Below, piece after piece: positions 1 through 28,209 of a stretch of DNA of 43,339 bases. A program made the translations under genes and the position numbers. This DNA is from Escherichia coli (GTDB lineage: Bacteria; Pseudomonadota; Gammaproteobacteria; Enterobacterales; Enterobacteriaceae): assembly GCF_003334315.1 (NCBI RefSeq), contig NZ_QOWR01000042.1, one strand, 5' to 3'. Every line of letters starts with the position of its first letter. The stretch's first letter is position 1. The notes under the pieces were generated by a model. That model did not search any database. It was not told where the DNA came from and saw only the letters and a list, made by a program, of their open reading frames with translations.

Positions 1-140
1 TAGGCCGGATAAGGCGTTCACGCCGCATCCGGCAGTCGTGCGCAGATGCCTGATGCGACGCTAACGCGTCTTATCAGACCTACAAATTCTCACGCCATCC
101 GTAGGCCGGATAAGGCGTTCACGCCGCATCCGGCAGTCGT
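1..140. repeat. REP/BIME cluster downstream of mhpE (three palindromic units)
   Basis: Two near-identical copies of TAGGCCGGATAAGGCGTTCACGCCGCATCCGGCAGTCGTG (1-40 and 103-142) flank an inverted copy GCCTGATGCGACGC...CTTATCAGACCTAC; this is the typical enterobacterial REP consensus. Confidence 0.8.
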
Positions 141-20294: not shown

Positions 20295-20560
20295 GTAGGC
20301 CTGATAAGACGCGTCAGCGTCGCATCAGGCATCTGAGCATGGTGTCGGATGCGGCGCGAGCGCCTTATCCGACCTACGGTTCAGACCTGTAGGCATGATA
20401 AGACGCGCCAGCGTCGCATCAGGCATCGGCGCGGGGTGTCGGATGCGACGCGAGCGCCTTATCCGACCTACGGTTCAGGCCTGTAGGCATAATAAGACGC
20501 GGTAAGCGTCGCATCAGGCATCGGCGCATGGTGTCGGATGCGCCACGCGACGCATCCGAC
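20295..20560. repeat. BIME (three ~97-bp REP-pair units) between codB upstream region and the prpE 3' end
   Basis: Three tandem units of GTAGGCCTGATAAGACGCG...GTCGGATGCGGCGCGAGCGCCTTATCCGACCTAC. Confidence 0.8.
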
Positions 20561-20566
20561 AATACC

Positions 20567-22453
20567 TTACTCTTCCATCGCCTGGCGGATCTGATCCAAC
20601 GACGCAGGATCATCAATGGTCGTCAGATCTCCAGGATCGCGTCCTTCGCAAATCGCCTGGATCGTGCGGCGCAGCATTTTTCCGGATCGCGTTTTTGGCA
20701 ATTGCGAGACAAACCAGACGTGCGCCGGGCGGCCAAAGTTGCCAATCTGGCTGTCCACCAGCGCCATAATCGCCTTCTCTTGCGAATGCGCCACATCACG
20801 ATCTTCCAGACTGTCGCTCTCTTTCGGAATGACAAACGCCACCGCCACCTGCCCTTTCAGCGCATCTTTCACCCCAACCACCGCCACTTCGGCAACGCCC
20901 GGATGGCTGGAGATACTCTCTTCAATCTCGCGCGTCCCCAGCCGATGCCCGGCAACGTTAATTACATCGTCAGTGCGCCCGAGAATAAAGTGATAACCGT
21001 CAGCGTCACGGATGCCCCAGTCAAAGGTGGCGTACACCGGGCGGGAAAACAGCGACCAGTAAGTCTTCACAAAGCGGCCGTCGTCGCCCCAGATGGTCTG
21101 AATACACCCCGGCGGCAGCGGCCCTTCCACCACCAGCATCCCTTTCTCGTTGACGCCACACGGTTCGCCGGTGACTTCATTAAGCAACTGCACGTTATAG
21201 CCATACATCGGCACACCGGGGCTTCCCAGACGCGTCGGCCTGTCGTCCAGACCGCGAGCAATCGCCATAATCGGCCAGCCGGATTCGGTCTGCCAGTAGT
21301 TGTCGATGACCGGCACATCCAGCGTATTGCTCACCCAACTGGCGGTCGGCTCGTCCAGCGGTTCTCCAGCCAGATAGAGCACTTCCAGCGACGAGAGATC
21401 GTGTTTGCGAATTTCAGCGGTAGGGAATTTTTTCAGCACGCGAATGGCGGTCGGCGCTGAGAACATCCGGCTAACCTGATATTTCTCGACGATTTTCCAC
21501 CACACGCCGCAGTCCGGCCAGGTCGGTAATCCTTCGTAAACGATAGTCGCCATCCCCGCCAGCAGCGGCGCGTAGACGATATACGAATGCCCCACCACCC
21601 AGCCGATATCCGATGCGCAAAAGAACACGCTGCCCGCTTTGCCGCCAAAAATGGTGTCCATCGAGGTCGCCAGCGCCACCGCATATCCGCCGACGTCACG
21701 CTGCACGCCTTTAGGTTTGCCGGTCGTGCCGGAAGTGTAGAGAATGCAGGAGGTTTCGTTGGATTCCAGCCACGCCACCGGTACCCGCGCGCCGATGTGT
21801 TGATGGCGCAACGACGCGAAATCGACATCCCGCCCGCTGACGCGCGCCATTTTCGCCAGCCCGCGATCCACCAGCAAAACATGGCGTGGCTGGTGCTGCG
21901 CCTGACTTATCGCATCGTCGAGCAATTTTTTATAGGGAATGATTTTGCCACCGCGCGCTCCGGCATCAGCCGAGACAATCAGCACCGGTTTAGCGTCATC
22001 AATTCGCGCCGCCACGCTGTGCGAGGCAAATCCACCAAACACCACCGAGTGAATAGCGCCAATGCGCGCGCAGGCCAGCAGAGTAATATGCGCTTCGGCA
22101 ATCATCGGCATATACACCAGCACCCGATCGCCGCGCTGCACACCCAATGAACGCAACATTGAGGCCACCGCGTTCACTTCGTCATGCAGCTGACGAAAGG
22201 TAAAGGTGCGCTCTTCTTCTGTTTCCGAAGAGACGGCAATCAGCGCCAGCGCCTCTGGCTGTTTCTCCAGCCAGCGGTCGATGGCGTTGTGGCACAAGTT
22301 GGTTCGGCCTTCACAAAACCAACGGGCAAACGGCGGATTGCTGTGATCGAGCGTTTGCGTAAAGGGCATCTGCCAGTCAATACGCCGGGCCTGCTCGGCC
22401 CAGAACTGCTCCGGTTCGTTAATCGAACGCTGATAAAATTCGCTAAAAGACAT
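20567..22453 (-). CDS. prpE: Propionate-CoA ligase (propionyl-CoA synthetase)
   Basis: 628-aa acyl-CoA synthetase with AMP-binding motif YTSGTTGKPKG. Confidence 0.9.
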   Translation of the reverse strand: MSFSEFYQRSINEPEQFWAEQARRIDWQMPFTQTLDHSNPPFARWFCEGRTNLCHNAIDRWLEKQPEALALIAVSSETEEERTFTFRQLHDEVNAVASMLRSLGVQRGDRVLVYMPMIAEAHITLLACARIGAIHSVVFGGFASHSVAARIDDAKPVLIVSADAGARGGKIIPYKKLLDDAISQAQHQPRHVLLVDRGLAKMARVSGRDVDFASLRHQHIGARVPVAWLESNETSCILYTSGTTGKPKGVQRDVGGYAVALATSMDTIFGGKAGSVFFCASDIGWVVGHSYIVYAPLLAGMATIVYEGLPTWPDCGVWWKIVEKYQVSRMFSAPTAIRVLKKFPTAEIRKHDLSSLEVLYLAGEPLDEPTASWVSNTLDVPVIDNYWQTESGWPIMAIARGLDDRPTRLGSPGVPMYGYNVQLLNEVTGEPCGVNEKGMLVVEGPLPPGCIQTIWGDDGRFVKTYWSLFSRPVYATFDWGIRDADGYHFILGRTDDVINVAGHRLGTREIEESISSHPGVAEVAVVGVKDALKGQVAVAFVIPKESDSLEDRDVAHSQEKAIMALVDSQIGNFGRPAHVWFVSQLPKTRSGKMLRRTIQAICEGRDPGDLTTIDDPASLDQIRQAMEE

Positions 22454-22492: not shown

Positions 22493-23944
22493 TTAAATGA
22501 CGTACAGGTCGAGATACTCATTGACCGGCATCTGTTCCAGGCGAGCTCTGTCGAGAGAAACCTCCAGAATGCGCTGCTGTTGGCGAGTCGGGAACTGGCG
22601 CGCGAGATTGATTTTGAATTTATCGACCAGTTTCGGAATACCATCCTGACGGCGGCGAGCATGACCAATGGGGTACTCCACCACCACTTCTTCAAATCGT
22701 GTGCCGTCGGTGAACTCAAGGGTAATGGCATTGGCGATGGCGCGTTTTTCCGGGTCGTGGTAGTCAGCGGTAAATGCCGGATCTTCAAAGCAATTGATCT
22801 TCTCGCGCAGGGCGTCAATGCGTTTATCTTGCGCAACGTTGTCCTCGTAATCTGCCGCCGTTAAGCGCCCGAATAGCAGCGGGATCGCCACCATGTACTG
22901 AATGCAGTGATCGCGGTCTGCCGGGTTATTGAGCGGCCCTTTTTTGTCGATGATGCGAATACAGGCTTCGTGGGTGCGAATGGTCACTTTTTCGATATCC
23001 GCCGCCGTTTTGCCTGCTGCCTGCATCTGTTCATAGAGCGTCATCGCTGCTTCAACTGCCGTCTGGGAGTGGAACTCCGCCGGGAAGGAGATTTTGAACA
23101 GCACATTTTCCATAACGTAGGAACCGTACGGGCGCTGGAAGCGGAACGATTCACCTTTAAAGGAGACGTCGTAGAAGCCCCACACCGGCGCAGTCAGGGC
23201 TGACGGGTAACCCATTTCGCCCGTTTTCGCCATCAGTGCCAGACGTACCGCGCGGGAAGTGGCATCGCCCGCCGCCCAGGATTTACGCGTGCCGGTGTTC
23301 GGCGCATGGCGATAGGTGCGCAGCGACTGACCGTCCACCCACGCCAGCGAAACGGCGTTGAGAATTTCCTCGCGGGTCAGGCCGAGCATTTCGGCGACCA
23401 CGGCGGTGGAAGCCACTTTCACTAACAGAACGTGGTCGAGGCCGACGCGGTTAAAGGAGTTTTCCAGCGCGATGCAGCCCTGAATTTCATGGGCTTTGAT
23501 CATTGCGGTCAGCACCTGTTTCATGGTCAACGGCGCTTTGCCGCTGGCGACCGCGTTGCGCGAAAGCCAGTCCGCCGTTGCCAGAATGCCGCCGAGGTTG
23601 TCGGAAGGATGGCCCCACTCCGCCGCCAGCCAGGTATCGTTGAAATCGAGCCAGCGGATCATCGCGCCGATGTTAAATGCCGCCTGGACGGGGTCGAGCT
23701 GGAACTGAGTTCCGGGGACGCGCACGCCGTTGGGTACGACGGTGCCGGGAACAATTGGCCCCAGCAGTTTTTTACAGGCCGGGTATTCGAGAGCTTCCAG
23801 ACCGCAGCCGAGCGTGTCGAGCAGGCAGTAATGTGCGGTGTCGTAGGCCACTTTAGAGCTGATTTCGTAGTTCATGACGTAATCGACGATATCAACGATT
23901 TCACGATCAAATTCCGGGCGGATGTTGTTGATTTGAGCTGACAT
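22493..23944 (-). CDS. prpD: 2-methylcitrate dehydratase
   Basis: 483-aa MmgE/PrpD-family ORF in conserved prpBCDE order. Confidence 0.9.
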
Positions 23945-23977: not shown

Positions 23978-25147
23978 TTACTGGCGCTTATCCAGCGCGA
24001 CAAACGGGCGGTCTTCCGGTCCAACATAATTGGCGGAAGGACGGATAATTTTGTTGTCCTGACGTTGTTCGATAATGTGCGCCGCCCAGCCGGTGACGCG
24101 GGCGATAACAAACAGTGGTGTGAACATCTCGGTGGGAACGCCCATCATGTTGTAGGAAACAGCAGAGAACCAGTCGAGATTGGGGAACATCTTTTTGCTC
24201 TCCCACATCACCGTTTCCAGGCGATCGGCGATGTTGTACATCTTCAGCGAGCCGCCTTCCTGCGAGAGCTGCTTCGCCACACGTTTAATCACCTGGTGGC
24301 GCGGGTCAGCGATGGTGTAAACCGGATGACCAAAACCAATGACCACTTCTTTGTTTTCCACGCGCTTGCGGATATCTGCTTCGGCTTCGTCCGGCGTTTC
24401 GTAGCGTTGCTGGATCTCCAGCGACACTTCATTCGCCCCGCCGTGTTTTGGCCCGCGCAGTGCGCCAATCGCGCCAATAATCGCGGAATACATATCAGAG
24501 CCAGTACCCGCAATCACCCGACTGGTAAAGGTGGAGGCGTTAAACTCGTGTTCGGCGTACAGCACCAGCGAAATATGCATCGCCTTTTCCCAGCTTTGCG
24601 ATGGCTTTTCGCCATGCAGCAGATGCAGGAAGTGACCACCGATGGAGTCGTCATCGGTTTCCGGCTGGATACGTTCGCCGTTGTGGCTGTAGTGATACCA
24701 ATAAAGGAGAATCGAGCTAAGTGATGCCAGCAGTTTGTCGGCAATATCCCGCGCACCGGAGACAGTGTGCCCCTCTTTTTCTGGCAGCGTGCAGCCGAGC
24801 ACGGAAACACCGGTGCGCATAACATCCATCGGGTGTGACGCCGCCGGTAAGGCTTCCAGCACAGTACGCACATTAGCCGGTAAACCGCGCAGGGCTTTCA
24901 GTTTCGTTTTGTAGGCGGCAAGTTCGTCACGGGTCGGCAGTTTGCCGTGGATCAGCAGGTGCGCCACTTCTTCAAATTCGCAATGTTCCGCCAGATCAAG
25001 AATATCGTAGCCACGGTAATGCAGGTCATTGCCACTTTTACCCACGGTGCAGAGCGCCGTATTGCCCGCCGGAACGCCAGAAAGCGCCACAGATTTTTTC
25101 GGTTTAATGACATGGGTACTGTTTTGCAGGATCGTTGTGTCGCTCAT
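23978..25147 (-). CDS. prpC: 2-methylcitrate synthase
   Basis: 389-aa citrate-synthase-family ORF. Confidence 0.9.
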
Positions 25148-25189
25148 GTTGTCCTCGTCATTGTTATCATTTGTAGGGTCGGGATTGTT

Positions 25190-25468
25190 GTCGGATGCGA
25201 CGCCATGCGTCTTATCCGACCTACAGTTCAGTTCACCCCGCAGGCCTGATAAGCCGCGTCAGCGGCGCATCAGGCATCGGTTGTCGGATACGACGCCATG
25301 CGTCTTATCCGACCTACAGTTCAGTACATCCCGTAGGCCTGATAAGTCACGTCAGCGGCGCATCAGGCATCGGTTGTCGGATGCGACGCCATCCGTCTTA
25401 TCCGACCTACAGTTCAGTGCACCTCGTAGGCCTGATAAGTCGCGTCAGCGACGCATCAGGCATCGGCT
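25190..25468. repeat. BIME (three 93-bp units) within the prpB-prpC intergenic region
   Basis: Units start at 25190, 25283 and 25376; GTCGGATGCGACGCCATGCGTCTTATCCGACCTAC... alternating with GTAGGCCTGATAAG... Confidence 0.8.
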
Positions 25469-25493
25469 GTCGAATACAATCAACGGGCGTTTT

Positions 25494-26384
25494 TTATTTC
25501 ACCTGGCTACGGGCAAACAGGTTGTCGAGCTTCTCTTCGTACTGGTAGTAGTTGATGCTTTCGTACAGCTCGTTGCGGGTCTGCATGGTGTCGATGACGC
25601 TTTTCTGCGTGCCTTCCTGGCGCAGGACGTTGTAGACATGTTCAGCGGCGCGGTTCATGGCGCGGAACGCTGAAAGTGGGTACAGCGCCATTGCGACATG
25701 GGCGCTGCGTAATTCGTCGGTGGTAAACAGCGGCGTGGCACCAAATTCGGTGATGTTGGCGAGGATCGGCACCTGCACCGCATCGGCAAACTGGCGGTAC
25801 ATGGCGAGTTCGGTAATCGCCTCCGGGAACAACATCTCGGCACCCGCTTCAACATAGGCCTGCGCACGCTCGATCGCCGCATCCAGCCCCTCTACCGCCA
25901 GAGCATCGGTGCGCGCCATGATCACAAAATCAGGATCGGTTTTCGCATCCACCGCCGCGCGGATCCGATCCACCATCTCTTCTTTCGAGACGATCGCTTT
26001 ATTCGGACGATGACCGCAGCGTTTCGCACCAACCTGATCTTCAATATGCAATCCTGCCGCACCGGCTTTAATCATCGATTTCACGGTGCGCGCCACGTTA
26101 AAGGCCGAAGAACCAAAACCGATATCCGCATCCACCAGCAGCGGCAGCGAACAAACGTCGGTGATACGGCGAATGTCGGTCAGCACATCATCAAGGGTAG
26201 AAATACCGAGATCGGGCAGCCCCAGCGAACCTGCCGCCACGCCACCGCCAGAAAGATAAATTGCCTGATATCCGGCACGCTGCGCCAACAGCGCATGATT
26301 AGCGTTGATGGTGCCAACAATCTGCAATGGATTTTCTTTAGTCAGTGCAGCGCGAAACGCTTTACCTGGAGAGTGTAGAGACAT
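25494..26384 (-). CDS. prpB: 2-methylisocitrate lyase
   Basis: 296-aa isocitrate-lyase/PEP-mutase family ORF; first gene of the prp operon. Confidence 0.9.
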
Positions 26385-26430
26385 AGCCCATCCTTTGTTA
26401 TCAACTTGTTATTTGCGTTGATAAAGACAA

Positions 26431-26447
26431 AGCAAGGGGTGTGCCAC
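26431..26447 (-). promoter_or_regulatory. Sigma-54 (-24/-12) promoter of prpBCDE
   Basis: Minus strand reads TGGCACACCCCTTGCT (GG-N10-GC spacing), about 50 bp upstream of the prpB start; divergent prpR encodes a sigma-54 activator. Confidence 0.65.
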
Positions 26448-26518
26448 AATTGCCTTAATAAAATTAAATGTTTAATTTCAATTTGTTAGAGATAAAGTCA
26501 TGAACTAATCCGCAAATA

Positions 26519-26580
26519 TGCGTTTCAGTTAACGTTTCAGGCAATGTTTCACCGCGTTTCATTGCAACAATTATGAAACA
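26519..26580. promoter_or_regulatory. Candidate PrpR enhancer (repeated CGTTTCA motifs and GTTTCAT-N10-ATGAAAC palindrome)
   Basis: Four CGTTTCA/TGTTTCA repeats and a 24-bp palindrome lie 75-135 bp upstream of the sigma-54 promoter; the AT-rich stretch between them could hold an IHF site. Confidence 0.4.
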
Positions 26581-26622
26581 AGACTAAACCCAATATTCGG
26601 TTTCTTAACTTTGCGGTGCGCT

Positions 26623-28209
26623 ATGGCACATCCACCACGGCTTAATGACGACAAACCGGTTATCTGGACGGTATCTGTAACGCGCCTGTTCGAGCTGTTT
26701 CGCGATATCAGCCTCGAGTTTGATCACCTGGCGAACATTACCCCTATTCAGCTTGGCTTTGAAAAAGCAGTGACCTACATCCGCAAGAAACTGGCAAACG
26801 AACGCTGTGACGCCATCATCGCGGCTGGCTCTAACGGCGCGTACCTGAAAAGCCGCCTGTCAGTGCCAGTTATTTTGATTAAACCGAGCGGCTACGATGT
26901 GTTACAGGCACTGGCAAAAGCCGGAAAACTCACCTCTTCTATCGGCGTTGTCACCTATCAGGAAACCATTCCAGCGCTGGTGGCGTTTCAAAAAACCTTT
27001 AATTTGCGCCTCGACCAACGTAGCTACATTACCGAGGAAGACGCACGCGGGCAGATTAACGAGCTAAAAGCTAACGGCACCGAAGCGGTGGTCGGCGCAG
27101 GGCTGATTACCGATTTGGCAGAAGAAGCCGGAATGACCGGAATTTTTATCTATTCCGCCGCCACCGTGCGCCAGGCGTTCAGCGATGCGCTGGATATGAC
27201 GCGCATGTCGTTACGCCATAACACTCACGATGCCACCCGCAACGCCCTGCGTACTCGTTACGTGCTGGGCGATATGCTCGGTCAATCACCACAGATGGAA
27301 CAAGTACGGCAGACTATTTTGCTGTATGCCCGCTCCAGTGCGGCGGTGTTGATTGAGGGGGAAACGGGGACGGGCAAAGAGCTGGCGGCCCAGGCGATTC
27401 ATCGGGAATATTTTGCCCGCCACGATGCGCGACAGGGCAAAAAGTCGCATCCGTTTGTTGCCGTCAACTGCGGGGCGATTGCCGAATCGCTGCTGGAAGC
27501 AGAACTGTTTGGCTATGAGGAAGGGGCGTTTACCGGCTCGCGACGCGGAGGTCGCGCCGGGCTGTTCGAAATTGCCCACGGCGGTACGCTGTTTCTGGAT
27601 GAGATTGGCGAAATGCCGCTACCTTTGCAGACCCGGCTGCTGCGGGTGCTGGAAGAAAAAGAGGTCACCCGCGTCGGCGGGCATCAGCCTGTTCCGGTAG
27701 ATGTACGGGTCATTAGCGCCACTCACTGCAATCTGGAAGAAGATATGCAGCAAGGACGTTTTCGCCGTGATCTGTTTTATCGGCTGAGTATTTTGCGTCT
27801 GCAATTGCCACCACTGCGCGAGCGGGTGGCGGATATTCTTCCGCTGGCGGAAAGCTTTTTGAAAGTGTCTCTGGCGGCGCTCTCCGCCCCATTTTCTGCT
27901 GCATTACGCCAGGGGTTACAGGCAAGTGAAACTGTGCTGCTGCACTACGACTGGCCAGGCAATATTCGTGAACTGCGCAATATGATGGAACGACTGGCGC
28001 TGTTTTTAAGTGTGGAACCGACGCCGGATTTAACGCCGCAGTTTATGCAACTGCTACTGCCGGAACTGGCGCGCGAGTCGGCGAAAACTCCCGCTCCACG
28101 CTTACTGACACCACAACAGGCACTGGAGAAATTTAATGGCGATAAAACAGCAGCGGCGAATTATTTAGGCATCAGCCGGACGACGTTCTGGCGGCGGCTG
28201 AAAAGCTGA
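26623..28209 (+). CDS. prpR: Sigma-54-dependent transcriptional activator of the prp operon
   Basis: ORF 26611-28209, start taken at [13 protein letters not shown] (528 aa); AAA+ Walker A GETGTGKE and the GAFTGS sigma-54 contact motif; C-terminal HTH. Confidence 0.85.

Follow-up and report, generated by a model that had tools for sequence, protein, structure and literature searches.

The DNA between prpR and prpC in this Escherichia coli strain is probably best explained, taking the interpretation as a whole, as the regulatory and intercistronic DNA of the prpR/prpBCDE propionate (2-methylcitrate cycle) divergon. It lies within a 43,339-nucleotide stretch of contig NZ_QOWR01000042.1, referred to here in its entirety as the window, in which the prpBCDE operon occupies the minus strand and prpR is divergent on the plus strand. 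The promoter is PprpB, the sigma-54/PrpR promoter known from earlier work on the E. coli propionate operon and employed in pPro expression vectors and in biosensors for propionate. REP and BIME elements in intercistronic spacers are likewise a long-known class, and stabiliser and attenuator roles have been shown for them elsewhere. The finding is real but ordinary: published work has already drawn attention to the prpB-prpC repeats. It carries little weight as a discovery and its residual value is practical. The genes concerned are:

26623 to 28209, plus strand: prpR, sigma-54 enhancer-binding activator (open reading frame 26611 to 28209, with an in-frame ATG at 26623)
25494 to 26384, minus strand: prpB, 2-methylisocitrate lyase, 296 aa (stop codon TAA at 25496-25494)
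23978 to 25147, minus strand: prpC, 2-methylcitrate synthase, 389 aa
22493 to 23944, minus strand: prpD, named from the RefSeq annotation of homologous loci
20567 to 22453, minus strand: prpE, matching TIGR02316 at 1305 bits

PrpB and PrpC were identified through NCBIfam models NF008455 (561 bits against a cut-off of 353) and NF009006 (722 bits against 550), respectively, and PrpE, like both, scores above the curated NCBIfam cut-off. The PrpR product carries the Pfam domains PrpR_N (1.2e-51), Sigma54_activat (1.4e-65) and HTH_8 (5e-10). The divergent gene thus encodes a sigma-54-interaction AAA+ domain, as is expected of a cognate enhancer-binding protein.

Four features were delimited in or next to the 238-bp region between prpR and prpB:

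26431 to 26446, minus strand: sigma-54 promoter PprpB, -24/-12 element TGGCAC-ACCCC-TTGCT, an exact consensus match
26385 to 26420, minus strand: predicted 5' UTR of prpB; transcription is predicted to begin about 36 nt before the ATG
26462 to 26488, no strand assigned: AT-rich stretch separating enhancer from promoter; its IHF-like sites differ from WATCAANNNNTTR by a single mismatch
26521 to 26579, no strand assigned: PrpR enhancer (UAS) with five GTTTCA/TGAAAC half-sites

The identity of the promoter as the sigma-54- and PrpR-dependent PprpB is near certain. The motif TGGCACACCCCTTGCT at 26446..26431 on the minus strand is an exact TGGCAC-N5-TTGCW sequence that points towards prpB. The original prediction had placed a near-consensus sigma-54 promoter about 50 bp upstream of prpB; the element is indeed present, with its 3' end 46 nt upstream of the prpB ATG (26384), but its match is exact and not merely near-consensus. 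The motif scan proposed at the same time as a check was carried out as a consensus scan of the 43-kb window and returned this one exact match, at 26446..26431, against 0.14 expected from shuffles. Exact matches occurred in 14 of 100 shuffled windows, and by position alone a chance origin, while of low probability, is only modestly improbable. The promoter call is instead supported by the placement of the motif relative to the prpB ATG together with its conservation and published binding data. The region between prpR and prpB shows no difference from that of E. coli K-12 (238/238 identical positions), including the -24/-12 motif of site OS01. The K-12 motif GTGGCACACCCCTTGCT coincides with an in vivo sigma-54 ChIP-seq peak at this site (PMC4591121) and with an in vitro RpoN-holoenzyme gSELEX peak (PMC8743547). 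Further, TGGCA.A.C..TTGCT is invariant in 12 Enterobacteriaceae; in Photorhabdus, Xenorhabdus, Morganella, Providencia and Oxalobacteraceae the motif lies 56-90 nt before prpB.

The start of transcription was predicted with a rule taken from PMC4591121, which yields a distance of 36 to the ATG; the E. coli prpB start site is itself a predicted one, with EcoCyc status 'P' (PMC4591121). An inverted repeat, TTATCAAC-N11-GTTGATAA, is present at 26397-26425 in the region of the predicted 5' UTR. A scan of 25000-26700 for sigma-70-like promoters returned none, which argues against an internal promoter for prpC.

Upstream of the promoter, CGTTTCA occurs on the plus strand at 26521, 26533 and 26555. 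Counting both strands, five of the 28 copies of the GTTTCA hexamer in the window fall within 58 bp (26522-26579), a cluster with a Poisson P of about 6e-10 per stretch; every other 60-bp stretch holds at most one copy. The distal part of the cluster is an inverted repeat, GTTTCAT-N10-ATGAAAC (26556-26579), and the proximal half-sites at 26522, 26534 and 26546 recur in direct orientation at intervals of 10-12 bp. The half-sites are located at -143 to -195 from the prpB ATG, within the range of about 80-200 bp upstream that is typical of a UAS. In Salmonella enterica, where prpR is likewise divergent, the enhancer consensus of PrpR is CGTTTCATGAAACG (PMC4987338), and the CGTTTCA motifs of the window are half-sites of this sequence. 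The two arrangements differ in the proximal site, which is a perfect palindrome in Salmonella and Citrobacter, whereas E. coli has direct TGAAAC repeats. The Salmonella system is roughly threefold stronger than that of E. coli. The UAS block is conserved across 12 Enterobacteriaceae, and genera further removed have a cluster of half-sites at -140..-260. The suggestion that repeated CGTTTCA motifs and a palindrome are candidate PrpR sites is well founded in that they are present, match the published consensus and keep their position across genera, but they fall outside the interval 25190-26447 for which it was made. Conservation of both the promoter and the cluster of half-sites spans the Enterobacterales and reaches into Oxalobacteraceae.

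The AT-rich stretch at 26462-26488 may serve as a candidate DNA-bending site, as its imperfect IHF-like sites weakly suggest. The only exact IHF consensus of the intergenic region, at 26399-26411, was rejected for this role because it lies past the promoter, within the 5' UTR; 1.65 exact matches are expected per window. As summarized in a review, rpoN, prpR and ihf are needed for expression of Salmonella prpBCDE, and CRP control of prp has been reported (PMC5566544). A search of 26385-26622 for the CRP site TGTGA-N6-TCACA, allowing up to three mismatches, found none. In the proposed sequence of events, PrpR with 2-methylcitrate would bind the GTTTCA/TGAAAC half-site cluster at 26521-26579, and bending in the AT-rich stretch would bring it into contact with sigma-54 RNA polymerase in a closed complex at 26446..26431. 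ATP hydrolysis would then yield the open complex, with the transcript starting about 36 nt upstream of prpB.

The spacer that separates prpB from prpC measures 346 bp and holds three units of 93 bp, with six hairpins in all. Its parts, all on the minus strand, are:

25462 to 25493, minus strand: 32-nt leader from the prpB stop to the first palindromic unit, resembling a degenerate half Y unit
25190 to 25461, minus strand: BIME-2 array (three units, 93 bp each), contained entirely in the prpB-prpC spacer
Unit 1, minus strand: Z2 at 25461-25426, inverted Y at 25410-25376
Unit 2, minus strand: Z2 at 25368-25333, inverted Y at 25317-25283
Unit 3, minus strand: Z2 at 25275-25240, inverted Y at 25224-25190
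25148 to 25189, minus strand: 42-nt spacer tail with the prpC translation-initiation region, Shine-Dalgarno GAGGA at 25156-25152

The expectation of a three-unit BIME at this place was borne out: Tandem Repeats Finder reports 25187-25477 with a period of 93, 3.1 copies and 91% matches, and six palindromic units could be mapped. Along the transcript each unit consists of Z2 (36 nt), a 15-nt linker, an inverted Y-like element (35 nt) and a 7-nt linker, and position 25190 is the prpC-proximal end of the last palindromic unit. All six palindromes, of 35-36 nt, have the CTAC (or CTGC) or GTAG end of REPs; a REP pattern with up to three mismatches has 6 sites in the window against 0 expected. Single hairpins have energies of -14.4 to -23.5 kcal/mol, and for the RNA of the entire spacer the folding energy is -152.3 kcal/mol (z = -8.4). 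Some substitutions preserve the hairpins: between units, a U-A pair of the inner Z2 stem is replaced by C-G in a compensatory change, and the Y stem has a variant, GGTCGG/CCGACC, in which both sides have changed together. The GACGAGGACAAY-ATG sequence at the start of prpC is conserved in Escherichia, Citrobacter, Kluyvera and Salmonella. A scan of 25000-26700 for intrinsic terminators was empty, which argues against a classical terminator in the spacer, and the spacer has a C/G ratio of 0.93, without an obvious C-rich rut site.

BIME-2 elements are defined by alternating y and z2 REPs in inverse orientation (PMC3333891), and the hairpins of the K-12 REP325 array (naRNA1-6, between yjdM and yjdN) are described as Y and Z2 (PMC4550694). 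A module-by-module alignment with the REP325 units assigns the prp palindromes to the same two types, the Y being the compensated variant. The linkers are short (15 and 7 nt); a long L linker with an IHF site is the mark of BIME-1, and no exact IHF consensus was found inside the prpB-prpC array. Being tandem, extragenic and copy-variable as well, the element is classed, by its sequence, as a BIME-2 array. It resembles REP325 in being intercistronic between co-oriented genes and in the order of Z2, linker, inverted Y and linker, in the same orientation to transcription; the Rfam model derived from REP325 matches it above the gathering threshold, and neither array has a U-tract terminator. The two differ in size (3 units of 93 bp against 6 of 100 bp), in their linkers (15 and 7 nt against 17 and 11, of unrelated sequence) and in the GGTCGG/CCGACC Y stem, which belongs to the prp array and not to REP325.

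The same Rfam model, RF02564, raises the question of whether the units code for small RNAs of the naRNA4 type, which would associate with the nucleoid, bind HU and condense the chromosome, as was originally claimed for REP325 (PMC4550694). Its match at 25243-25314 (minus) scores 64.4 bits against a gathering score of 59.5, and the other prp units score 29-58 bits. However, RF02564 matches at nine places, in the four arrays of the window and on both strands. Because the model was built from one BIME-2 unit and has nine matches in four arrays, it recognises the generic Y and Z2 pair. In addition, a 2026 follow-up from the same laboratory found no measurable compaction by REP325 or the naRNAs (bioRxiv 10.64898/2026.03.23.713779). 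We consider this explanation extremely improbable, and naRNA4 as a specific gene was rejected, since the model matches every BIME-2 array in the window.

A weak Rfam match to the leader region (25429-25501, 35 bits, below threshold) gave rise to the idea that the stop and last codons of prpB derive from a degenerate Y unit. This was not adopted, because PrpB of the REP-free Pseudocitrobacter has the same length and a similar C-terminus.

The leader also bears on a proposal in which the first REP lowers PrpB synthesis as terminating ribosomes stall at the stop codon (the Liang-Rudd-Deutscher mechanism). This mechanism is documented, as outlined in PMC12306157, for REPs less than 16 nt from a stop codon, and such proximity exists in Citrobacter, Kluyvera and Salmonella arizonae/diarizonae, where a REP adjoins the prpB stop codon. 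By contrast, all E. coli alleles examined, that of the window included, have a first stable hairpin that begins 32 nt after the TAA, and we give the proposal almost no credence here.

The number of units varies widely among strains. In a sample of 60 E. coli genomes, drawn as evenly spaced rows and with unit number derived from spacer lengths via record spans, the array was absent from 24; 16 genomes carried one unit, 2 carried three, 15 carried four and 2 carried five. One two-unit example was also found among E. coli alleles. The allelic series was sampled across 5,219 E. coli genomes with the locus. For counting empty alleles, a 164-bp empty-site query at a minimum of 80% coverage is unfit, as the flanks alone cover 81-85%; with an 851-bp query, alleles with at least four units split into separate places, and four of these were resolved from their loci and from K-12. 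Filled and empty alleles are separated by a clean indel between TAAAA..AACG and AA..ATCTCGACC, and the allele of the window equals the four-unit allele minus one internal unit, as unequal recombination would give. Given this distribution, and the REP-free spacers of 39-57 bp in Pseudocitrobacter and Shimwellia, the array is dispensable as well as copy-variable and could be selectively neutral; with about 40% of the sampled E. coli genomes lacking it, it would be a modulator and not a required part of the operon. Spacer length thereby differs by up to about 490 bp among E. coli strains, which matters for the engineering and comparison of propionate catabolism. The locus further offers a natural allelic series of 0 to 5 units with near-identical flanks, suited to measuring BIME dose against operon polarity and RNase R-dependent decay. 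Natural alleles of this series are those of S10 (0 units), APEC37 (1), the window (3), K-12 (4) and MZ1211 (5).

Such polymorphism is what would be expected of a selfish or neutral insertion of REP/REPIN type that is tolerated in the spacer, its effect on expression being incidental and unselected. The clean indel and the loss of one internal unit fit this explanation, as do the four such arrays within the window and the documented strain-variable copy number of BIME-2, with cleavage and recombination mediated by TnpA(REP) (PMC3333891). Several observations weigh against it. REPs are found in the same spacer in Escherichia, Citrobacter and Salmonella arizonae/diarizonae, with a remnant in Kluyvera; they differ in type and orientation among these four genera, suggesting a favoured target or retention. 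The hairpin-preserving substitutions in the prp array, the experimental effect of the equivalent REP325 on both flanking genes and the induction of prpB above the downstream genes (PMC7360682) also speak for more than tolerance. Overall, a neutral insertion seems unlikely, if far from negligible; it is a statement about selection, not about mechanism, and can be compatible with a measurable effect on expression.

The array could also act as DNA, by binding gyrase and being cleaved by it (or by binding Pol I), and so manage supercoiling upon strong induction. It fits the BIME-2 sequence definition, and gyrase cleaves other BIME-2 in vivo (Espeli and Boccard 1997, as referenced in PMC3333891 and PMC4550694). 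The roughly 40% of strains that live without the array, together with the local transcript-level effects of REP325 and its lack of any effect at the chromosome level (bioRxiv 10.64898/2026.03.23.713779), make this role very unlikely.

Action of the array on the transcript is the reading that we prefer. REP325 is reported to stabilise the mRNA of the gene before it, yjdM, and to lower that of the gene after it, yjdN, about 8-10-fold; the attenuation is partly bicyclomycin-sensitive and Rho-dependent, and genome-wide the expression of tandem gene pairs with a REP is biased towards the upstream gene (bioRxiv 10.64898/2026.03.23.713779). The REPs of malE-malF and hisJ-hisQ likewise form stable hairpins after a promoter-proximal gene, and for these, stabilisation of the upstream gene through a block to 3'-to-5' exonucleases was shown experimentally (Newbury et al. 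1987, as cited in PMC6061677). The prp spacer is of the REP325 kind, with co-oriented genes of one operon, stable hairpins and neither an intrinsic terminator nor an internal promoter in the scanned region. It is plausible on these parallels that the prp array stabilises prpB, attenuates prpCDE, or both, as the original prediction had tentatively proposed. At the locus itself, induction of prpB exceeded that of the downstream genes in strain ZvL2, whose repeat number between prpB and prpC differs from that of K-12, and post-transcriptional control via these repeats has already been proposed (Pobeguts et al. 2020, PMC7360682). That study addressed the same locus and repeats in two strains; the present analysis adds the series of 0-5 units and other genera. 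Under anoxia, RNase R hydrolyses the prpBCDE mRNA (Simonte 2017, as cited in PMC5371410, PMC10240344 and PMC7360682).

On this basis, the array probably skews expression towards prpB. The 346-nt spacer would be transcribed within the polycistronic mRNA, and the array may act both post- and co-transcriptionally. Its hairpins would block the 3'-to-5' exonucleases RNase II and PNPase, and RNase R would pass; because of this block, we propose, the prpB segment would outlive prpCDE. Also, the long, untranslated and structured spacer would cause a partial, probably Rho-assisted, loss of read-through, with the net outcome of more prpB than prpCDE. An excess of prpB would favour the removal of 2-methylisocitrate over its production and would damp the PrpE/PrpC-dependent inducer loop, which may be the rationale of the arrangement. 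REP effects are strongly context-dependent, with no general gain in half-life from a terminal REP and no Rho sensitivity of fragments with 2-4 hairpins (bioRxiv 10.64898/2026.03.23.713779), so that the size, and even the direction, of the effect at prp cannot be assumed. Because the array is mobile, recombines and ranges from 0 to 5 units among strains, any effect would be a strain-specific modulation.

A bolder, rather doubtful extension is that unit number is a heritable rheostat, setting the prpB:prpCDE ratio and the RNase R-dependent shut-off under anoxia, with the recurrence of REPs being selected tuning. If true, it would help to explain why strains differ in the use and tolerance of propionate in the gut, such as AIEC or B2 strains (0-1 units) as compared with K-12 or B strains (4 units). 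On that view, the repeated occupation of this spacer by REPs in Escherichia, Citrobacter and Salmonella would be the product of selection for tuning.

A further array of the same class is present at the distal side of the operon:

20295 to 20468, minus strand: second BIME-2 (two units), between prpE and codB, some 100 nt past the prpE stop

This second BIME-2 lies at the 3' end of the prp operon.

The window comes from E. coli: a 1,551-bp query across the finding was matched at ≥95% identity in 5,221 of the 5,426 complete genomes of that species, and the matches fall under annotated prpR, prpB and prpC. The prp operon lies on the minus strand, and the relevant features are as follows.

26623..28209, plus strand: prpR (Pfam PrpR_N, Sigma54_activat and HTH_8)
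26446..26431, minus strand: sigma-54 -24/-12 element TGGCACACCCCTTGCT, exact TGGCAC-N5-TTGCW
26384..25494, minus strand: prpB (NCBIfam, over curated cut-off)
25148-25493: prpB-prpC spacer, 346 bp
25147..23978, minus strand: prpC (NCBIfam, over curated cut-off)
23944..22493, minus strand: prpD
22453..20567, minus strand: prpE (NCBIfam, over curated cut-off)

The sigma-54 promoter proposed near prpB is borne out. TGGCACACCCCTTGCT ends 46 nt from the prpB ATG and is the sole exact TGGCAC-N5-TTGCW match in the window. Shuffled windows held a mean of 0.14 exact matches (14 of 100 shuffles had one), so the motif by itself is just mildly improbable and the promoter call is settled by context. The 238-bp prpR-prpB intergenic region is fully identical to that of K-12 MG1655, where the same motif, GTGGCACACCCCTTGCT (site OS01), coincides with a sigma-54 ChIP-seq peak and has a start site predicted 36 nt from prpB (PMC4591121). 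Genomic SELEX with reconstituted RpoN holoenzyme also gave a peak in the prpR/prpB spacer (PMC8743547), and EcoCyc lists the prpB promoter as predicted, without a mapped start site. A -24/-12 element is found 56-90 nt 5' of prpB in Escherichia, Citrobacter, Kluyvera, Salmonella arizonae and diarizonae, Pseudocitrobacter and Shimwellia, as well as in Photorhabdus, Xenorhabdus, Morganella, Providencia and the betaproteobacterial Oxalobacteraceae; TGGCA.A.C..TTGCT is invariant in an enterobacterial alignment of 12 species. No sigma-70-like promoter was found in a scan of 25000-26700.

Upstream, CGTTTCA occurs at 26521, 26533 and 26555. Counting both strands, five GTTTCA copies fall within 58 bp (26522-26579) against 28 in the entire window (Poisson P about 6e-10), and any other 60-bp stretch holds at most one. 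Given the Salmonella PrpR enhancer consensus CGTTTCATGAAACG, as listed in Table 1 of PMC4987338 (citing Palacios and Escalante-Semerena 2004), these repeats are half-sites of the PrpR enhancer; the original prediction of their role thus stands, though they fall outside the interval 25190-26447 in which it had placed them. The palindrome it reported further upstream was recovered as GTTTCAT-N10-ATGAAAC (26556-26579), an inverted repeat more strongly conserved than the rest of the region across all genera examined. Several Citrobacter species and Salmonella arizonae (homologous loci L015, L016 and L026, around -175 to -188) have a perfect palindrome, CGTTTCATGAAACG, as their proximal PrpR site; in Escherichia (window 26521-26551) this site is degenerate and consists of direct repeats of TGAAAC spaced 10-12 bp. 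This degeneracy may be tied to the roughly threefold greater strength of the Salmonella prpR-PprpB system (PMC5566544). It is established that PrpR, bound to these clustered half-sites, activates the sigma-54 polymerase sitting on the -24/-12 element, and a review gives IHF, PrpR, sigma-54 and 2-methylcitrate as required (PMC5566544). An AT-rich stretch between enhancer and promoter (26462-26488) holds candidate IHF-like sites with one mismatch. The CRP consensus TGTGA-N6-TCACA was not found with up to three mismatches in the prpR-prpB intergenic region (26385-26622); reviews state direct CRP activation of both prp promoters. An inverted repeat, TTATCAAC-N11-GTTGATAA (26397-26425), spans the prpB 5' UTR and its predicted start site and contains the region's sole exact IHF-consensus match, which lies downstream of the promoter; the inverted repeat is kept in Escherichia, Citrobacter and Kluyvera, without conservation in Salmonella.

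The three-unit BIME described between the prpB stop and the prpC start was likewise recovered: Tandem Repeats Finder reports 25187-25477 with period 93, 3.1 copies and 91% matches, and the spacer could be mapped in transcription order.

Leader: 32 nt, prpB side
BIME unit, three times: Z2 (36 nt), linker (15 nt), inverted Y-like unit (35 nt), linker (7 nt)
Tail: 42 nt, carrying the prpC Shine-Dalgarno GAGGA

Z2 units end CCTAC (CCTGC in the third), and the inverted Y-like units begin GTAGG. BIME-2 elements are defined by inversely oriented z2 and y REPs with short linkers, in tandem and in strain-variable number (PMC3333891), and the prp array shows all of these properties. The spacer RNA folds at -152.3 kcal/mol (z = -8.4 vs shuffles) and individual palindromic units at -14 to -24 kcal/mol; a scan of the spacer found no U-tract terminator. 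Rfam naRNA4 (RF02564), a model derived from the REP325 array, exceeds its gathering score of 59.5 on one unit, at 64.4 bits; the remaining units reach 29-58 bits, and hits fall on both strands. As the model also matches three more arrays within the window, it detects generic BIME-2 units and no specific gene; a naRNA4-like nucleoid role is a candidate undermined by a 2026 preprint (bioRxiv 10.64898/2026.03.23.713779), and action at the DNA level via gyrase is a further, unlikely candidate. An opposite-strand 117-aa ORF (25195..25548, plus strand) was rejected as a gene, being an artefact composed almost wholly of BIME sequence; in the five-unit strain NZ_CM144251.1, PGAP annotates a 'hypothetical protein' at its position. 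In K-12, locus tag b0332 is absent between prpB (b0331) and prpC (b0333).

The nearest tested analogue is REP325, the K-12 array between yjdM and yjdN, whose hairpins are Y and Z2 (PMC4550694) and whose units align module by module with the prp array in the same orientation relative to transcription. Its deletion raised downstream yjdN about 8-10-fold and lowered upstream yjdM 3-fold to 160-fold, and read-through rose from 23% to 39% under bicyclomycin with the full array only; genome-wide, upstream/downstream ratios are higher in REP-containing tandem gene pairs, with context-dependent effects and no general lengthening of half-lives (bioRxiv 10.64898/2026.03.23.713779). REP hairpins also act as exonuclease barriers following Rho-dependent termination (PMC6061677). 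For prp itself, PMC7360682 (Pobeguts et al. 2020) describes stronger induction of prpB than of the genes behind it, and a number of prpB-prpC repeats that differs between strains ZvL2 and K-12. RNase R-dependent post-transcriptional prp control, with the prpB-prpC repeats as a possible target, was reported by Simonte et al. 2017, as summarized in PMC7360682 and by two further papers. These reports together favour a reading in which the array would shield the prpB segment against 3'-to-5' decay and lower read-through into prpCDE, giving prpB > prpCDE; for the prp locus itself this is our inference. Such an outcome would help to clear toxic 2-methylisocitrate and would dampen the inducer loop that involves PrpE and PrpC, a rationale of our own. 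The original observation is confirmed and its interpretation sound. Translation stalling, described for REPs lying <16 nt beyond a stop codon (PMC12306157), does not apply to the window's prpB, where the first hairpin lies 32 nt from the TAA.

All of that observation was already known or in print as a hypothesis, and the sole additions here are a population-wide allelic series and a cross-genus picture of REP occupancy. Spacer lengths, measured on fetched loci except for the two-unit example, define the following alleles.

44 bp: 0 units (S10)
155-159 bp: 1 unit (O157:H7, APEC37)
253 bp: 2 units (one example, outside the 60-row sample)
346 bp: 3 units (window)
439 bp: 4 units (K-12, C41(DE3), ES1)
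532 bp: 5 units (MZ1211)

In 60 evenly stepped rows from the 5,221 ranked matching records, queried with the empty site joining both flanks, 0, 1, 3, 4 and 5 units occurred 24, 16, 2, 15 and 2 times, with one truncated locus; the three-unit form is therefore a minority allele. A different query, applied to an independent set of 60 rows, yielded 23, 16 and 5 for 0, 1 and 3 units, its 15 split rows being either unresolved or at least four units. The window's allele equals the four-unit ES1 allele less one internal unit. Alleles without the array are set apart from those with it by a clean indel and by a 9-bp repeat before the prpC ribosome-binding site. This repeat, TAACAATGA, is lacking in 0-unit alleles (locus L002, 1449-1492, vs window 25148-25189), so the allele classes also differ in the prpC translation-initiation region. 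NZ_CM135829.1, labelled DH5alpha, has a 0-unit allele (97.9% identity, 4.83 Mb); the label is probably wrong, since K-12 strains carry four units.

The main rival to a regulatory role is a neutral or selfish insertion, to which the absence of the array from about 40% of genomes, its variation by whole units and the documented TnpA(REP)-linked dynamics (PMC3333891) all point. Pure neutrality is nevertheless opposed by REPs in this spacer in four genera and by hairpin-preserving changes in the array, namely a compensatory U-A to C-G change between units in the inner Z2 stem and a compensated Y stem variant (GGTCGG/CCGACC vs canonical GGCCGG/CCGGCC). Flanks as in E. coli enclose 3.5 units in E. 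albertii and a single unit in a cryptic Escherichia clade; Citrobacter species carry REPs of other types, one or two of them, Salmonella arizonae and diarizonae carry two REPs, and Kluyvera a half-REP remnant, while the Pseudocitrobacter and Shimwellia spacers (39-57 bp) are REP-free. In several Citrobacter, Kluyvera and both Salmonella subspecies (homologous loci L010, L011, L017, L021, L026, L027 and L077, locus position ~3380) the prpB TAG stop is supplied by the REP's GTAG, and PrpB is then 292-295 aa vs 296. These stop-abutting REPs belong to the <16-nt class reported to stall terminating ribosomes, unlike that of E. coli (32 nt).

A second BIME-2 (20295-20468, minus strand) has two units, scoring 75 and 66 bits with naRNA4, and is located about 100 nt 3' of the prpE stop, ahead of codB. 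The prp mRNA therefore has REP hairpins in two places, behind prpB and at the 3' end, which bears on the reported 3'-to-5' RNase R decay. Two further BIME-2 arrays gave naRNA4 matches over threshold: one at the window's very start (3-83, plus strand), and one of five units with the 93-bp period of the prp array (35000-35441, plus strand), between a carbamate-kinase ORF (33951..34901, minus strand) and an ORF at 35509..36927 (minus strand).
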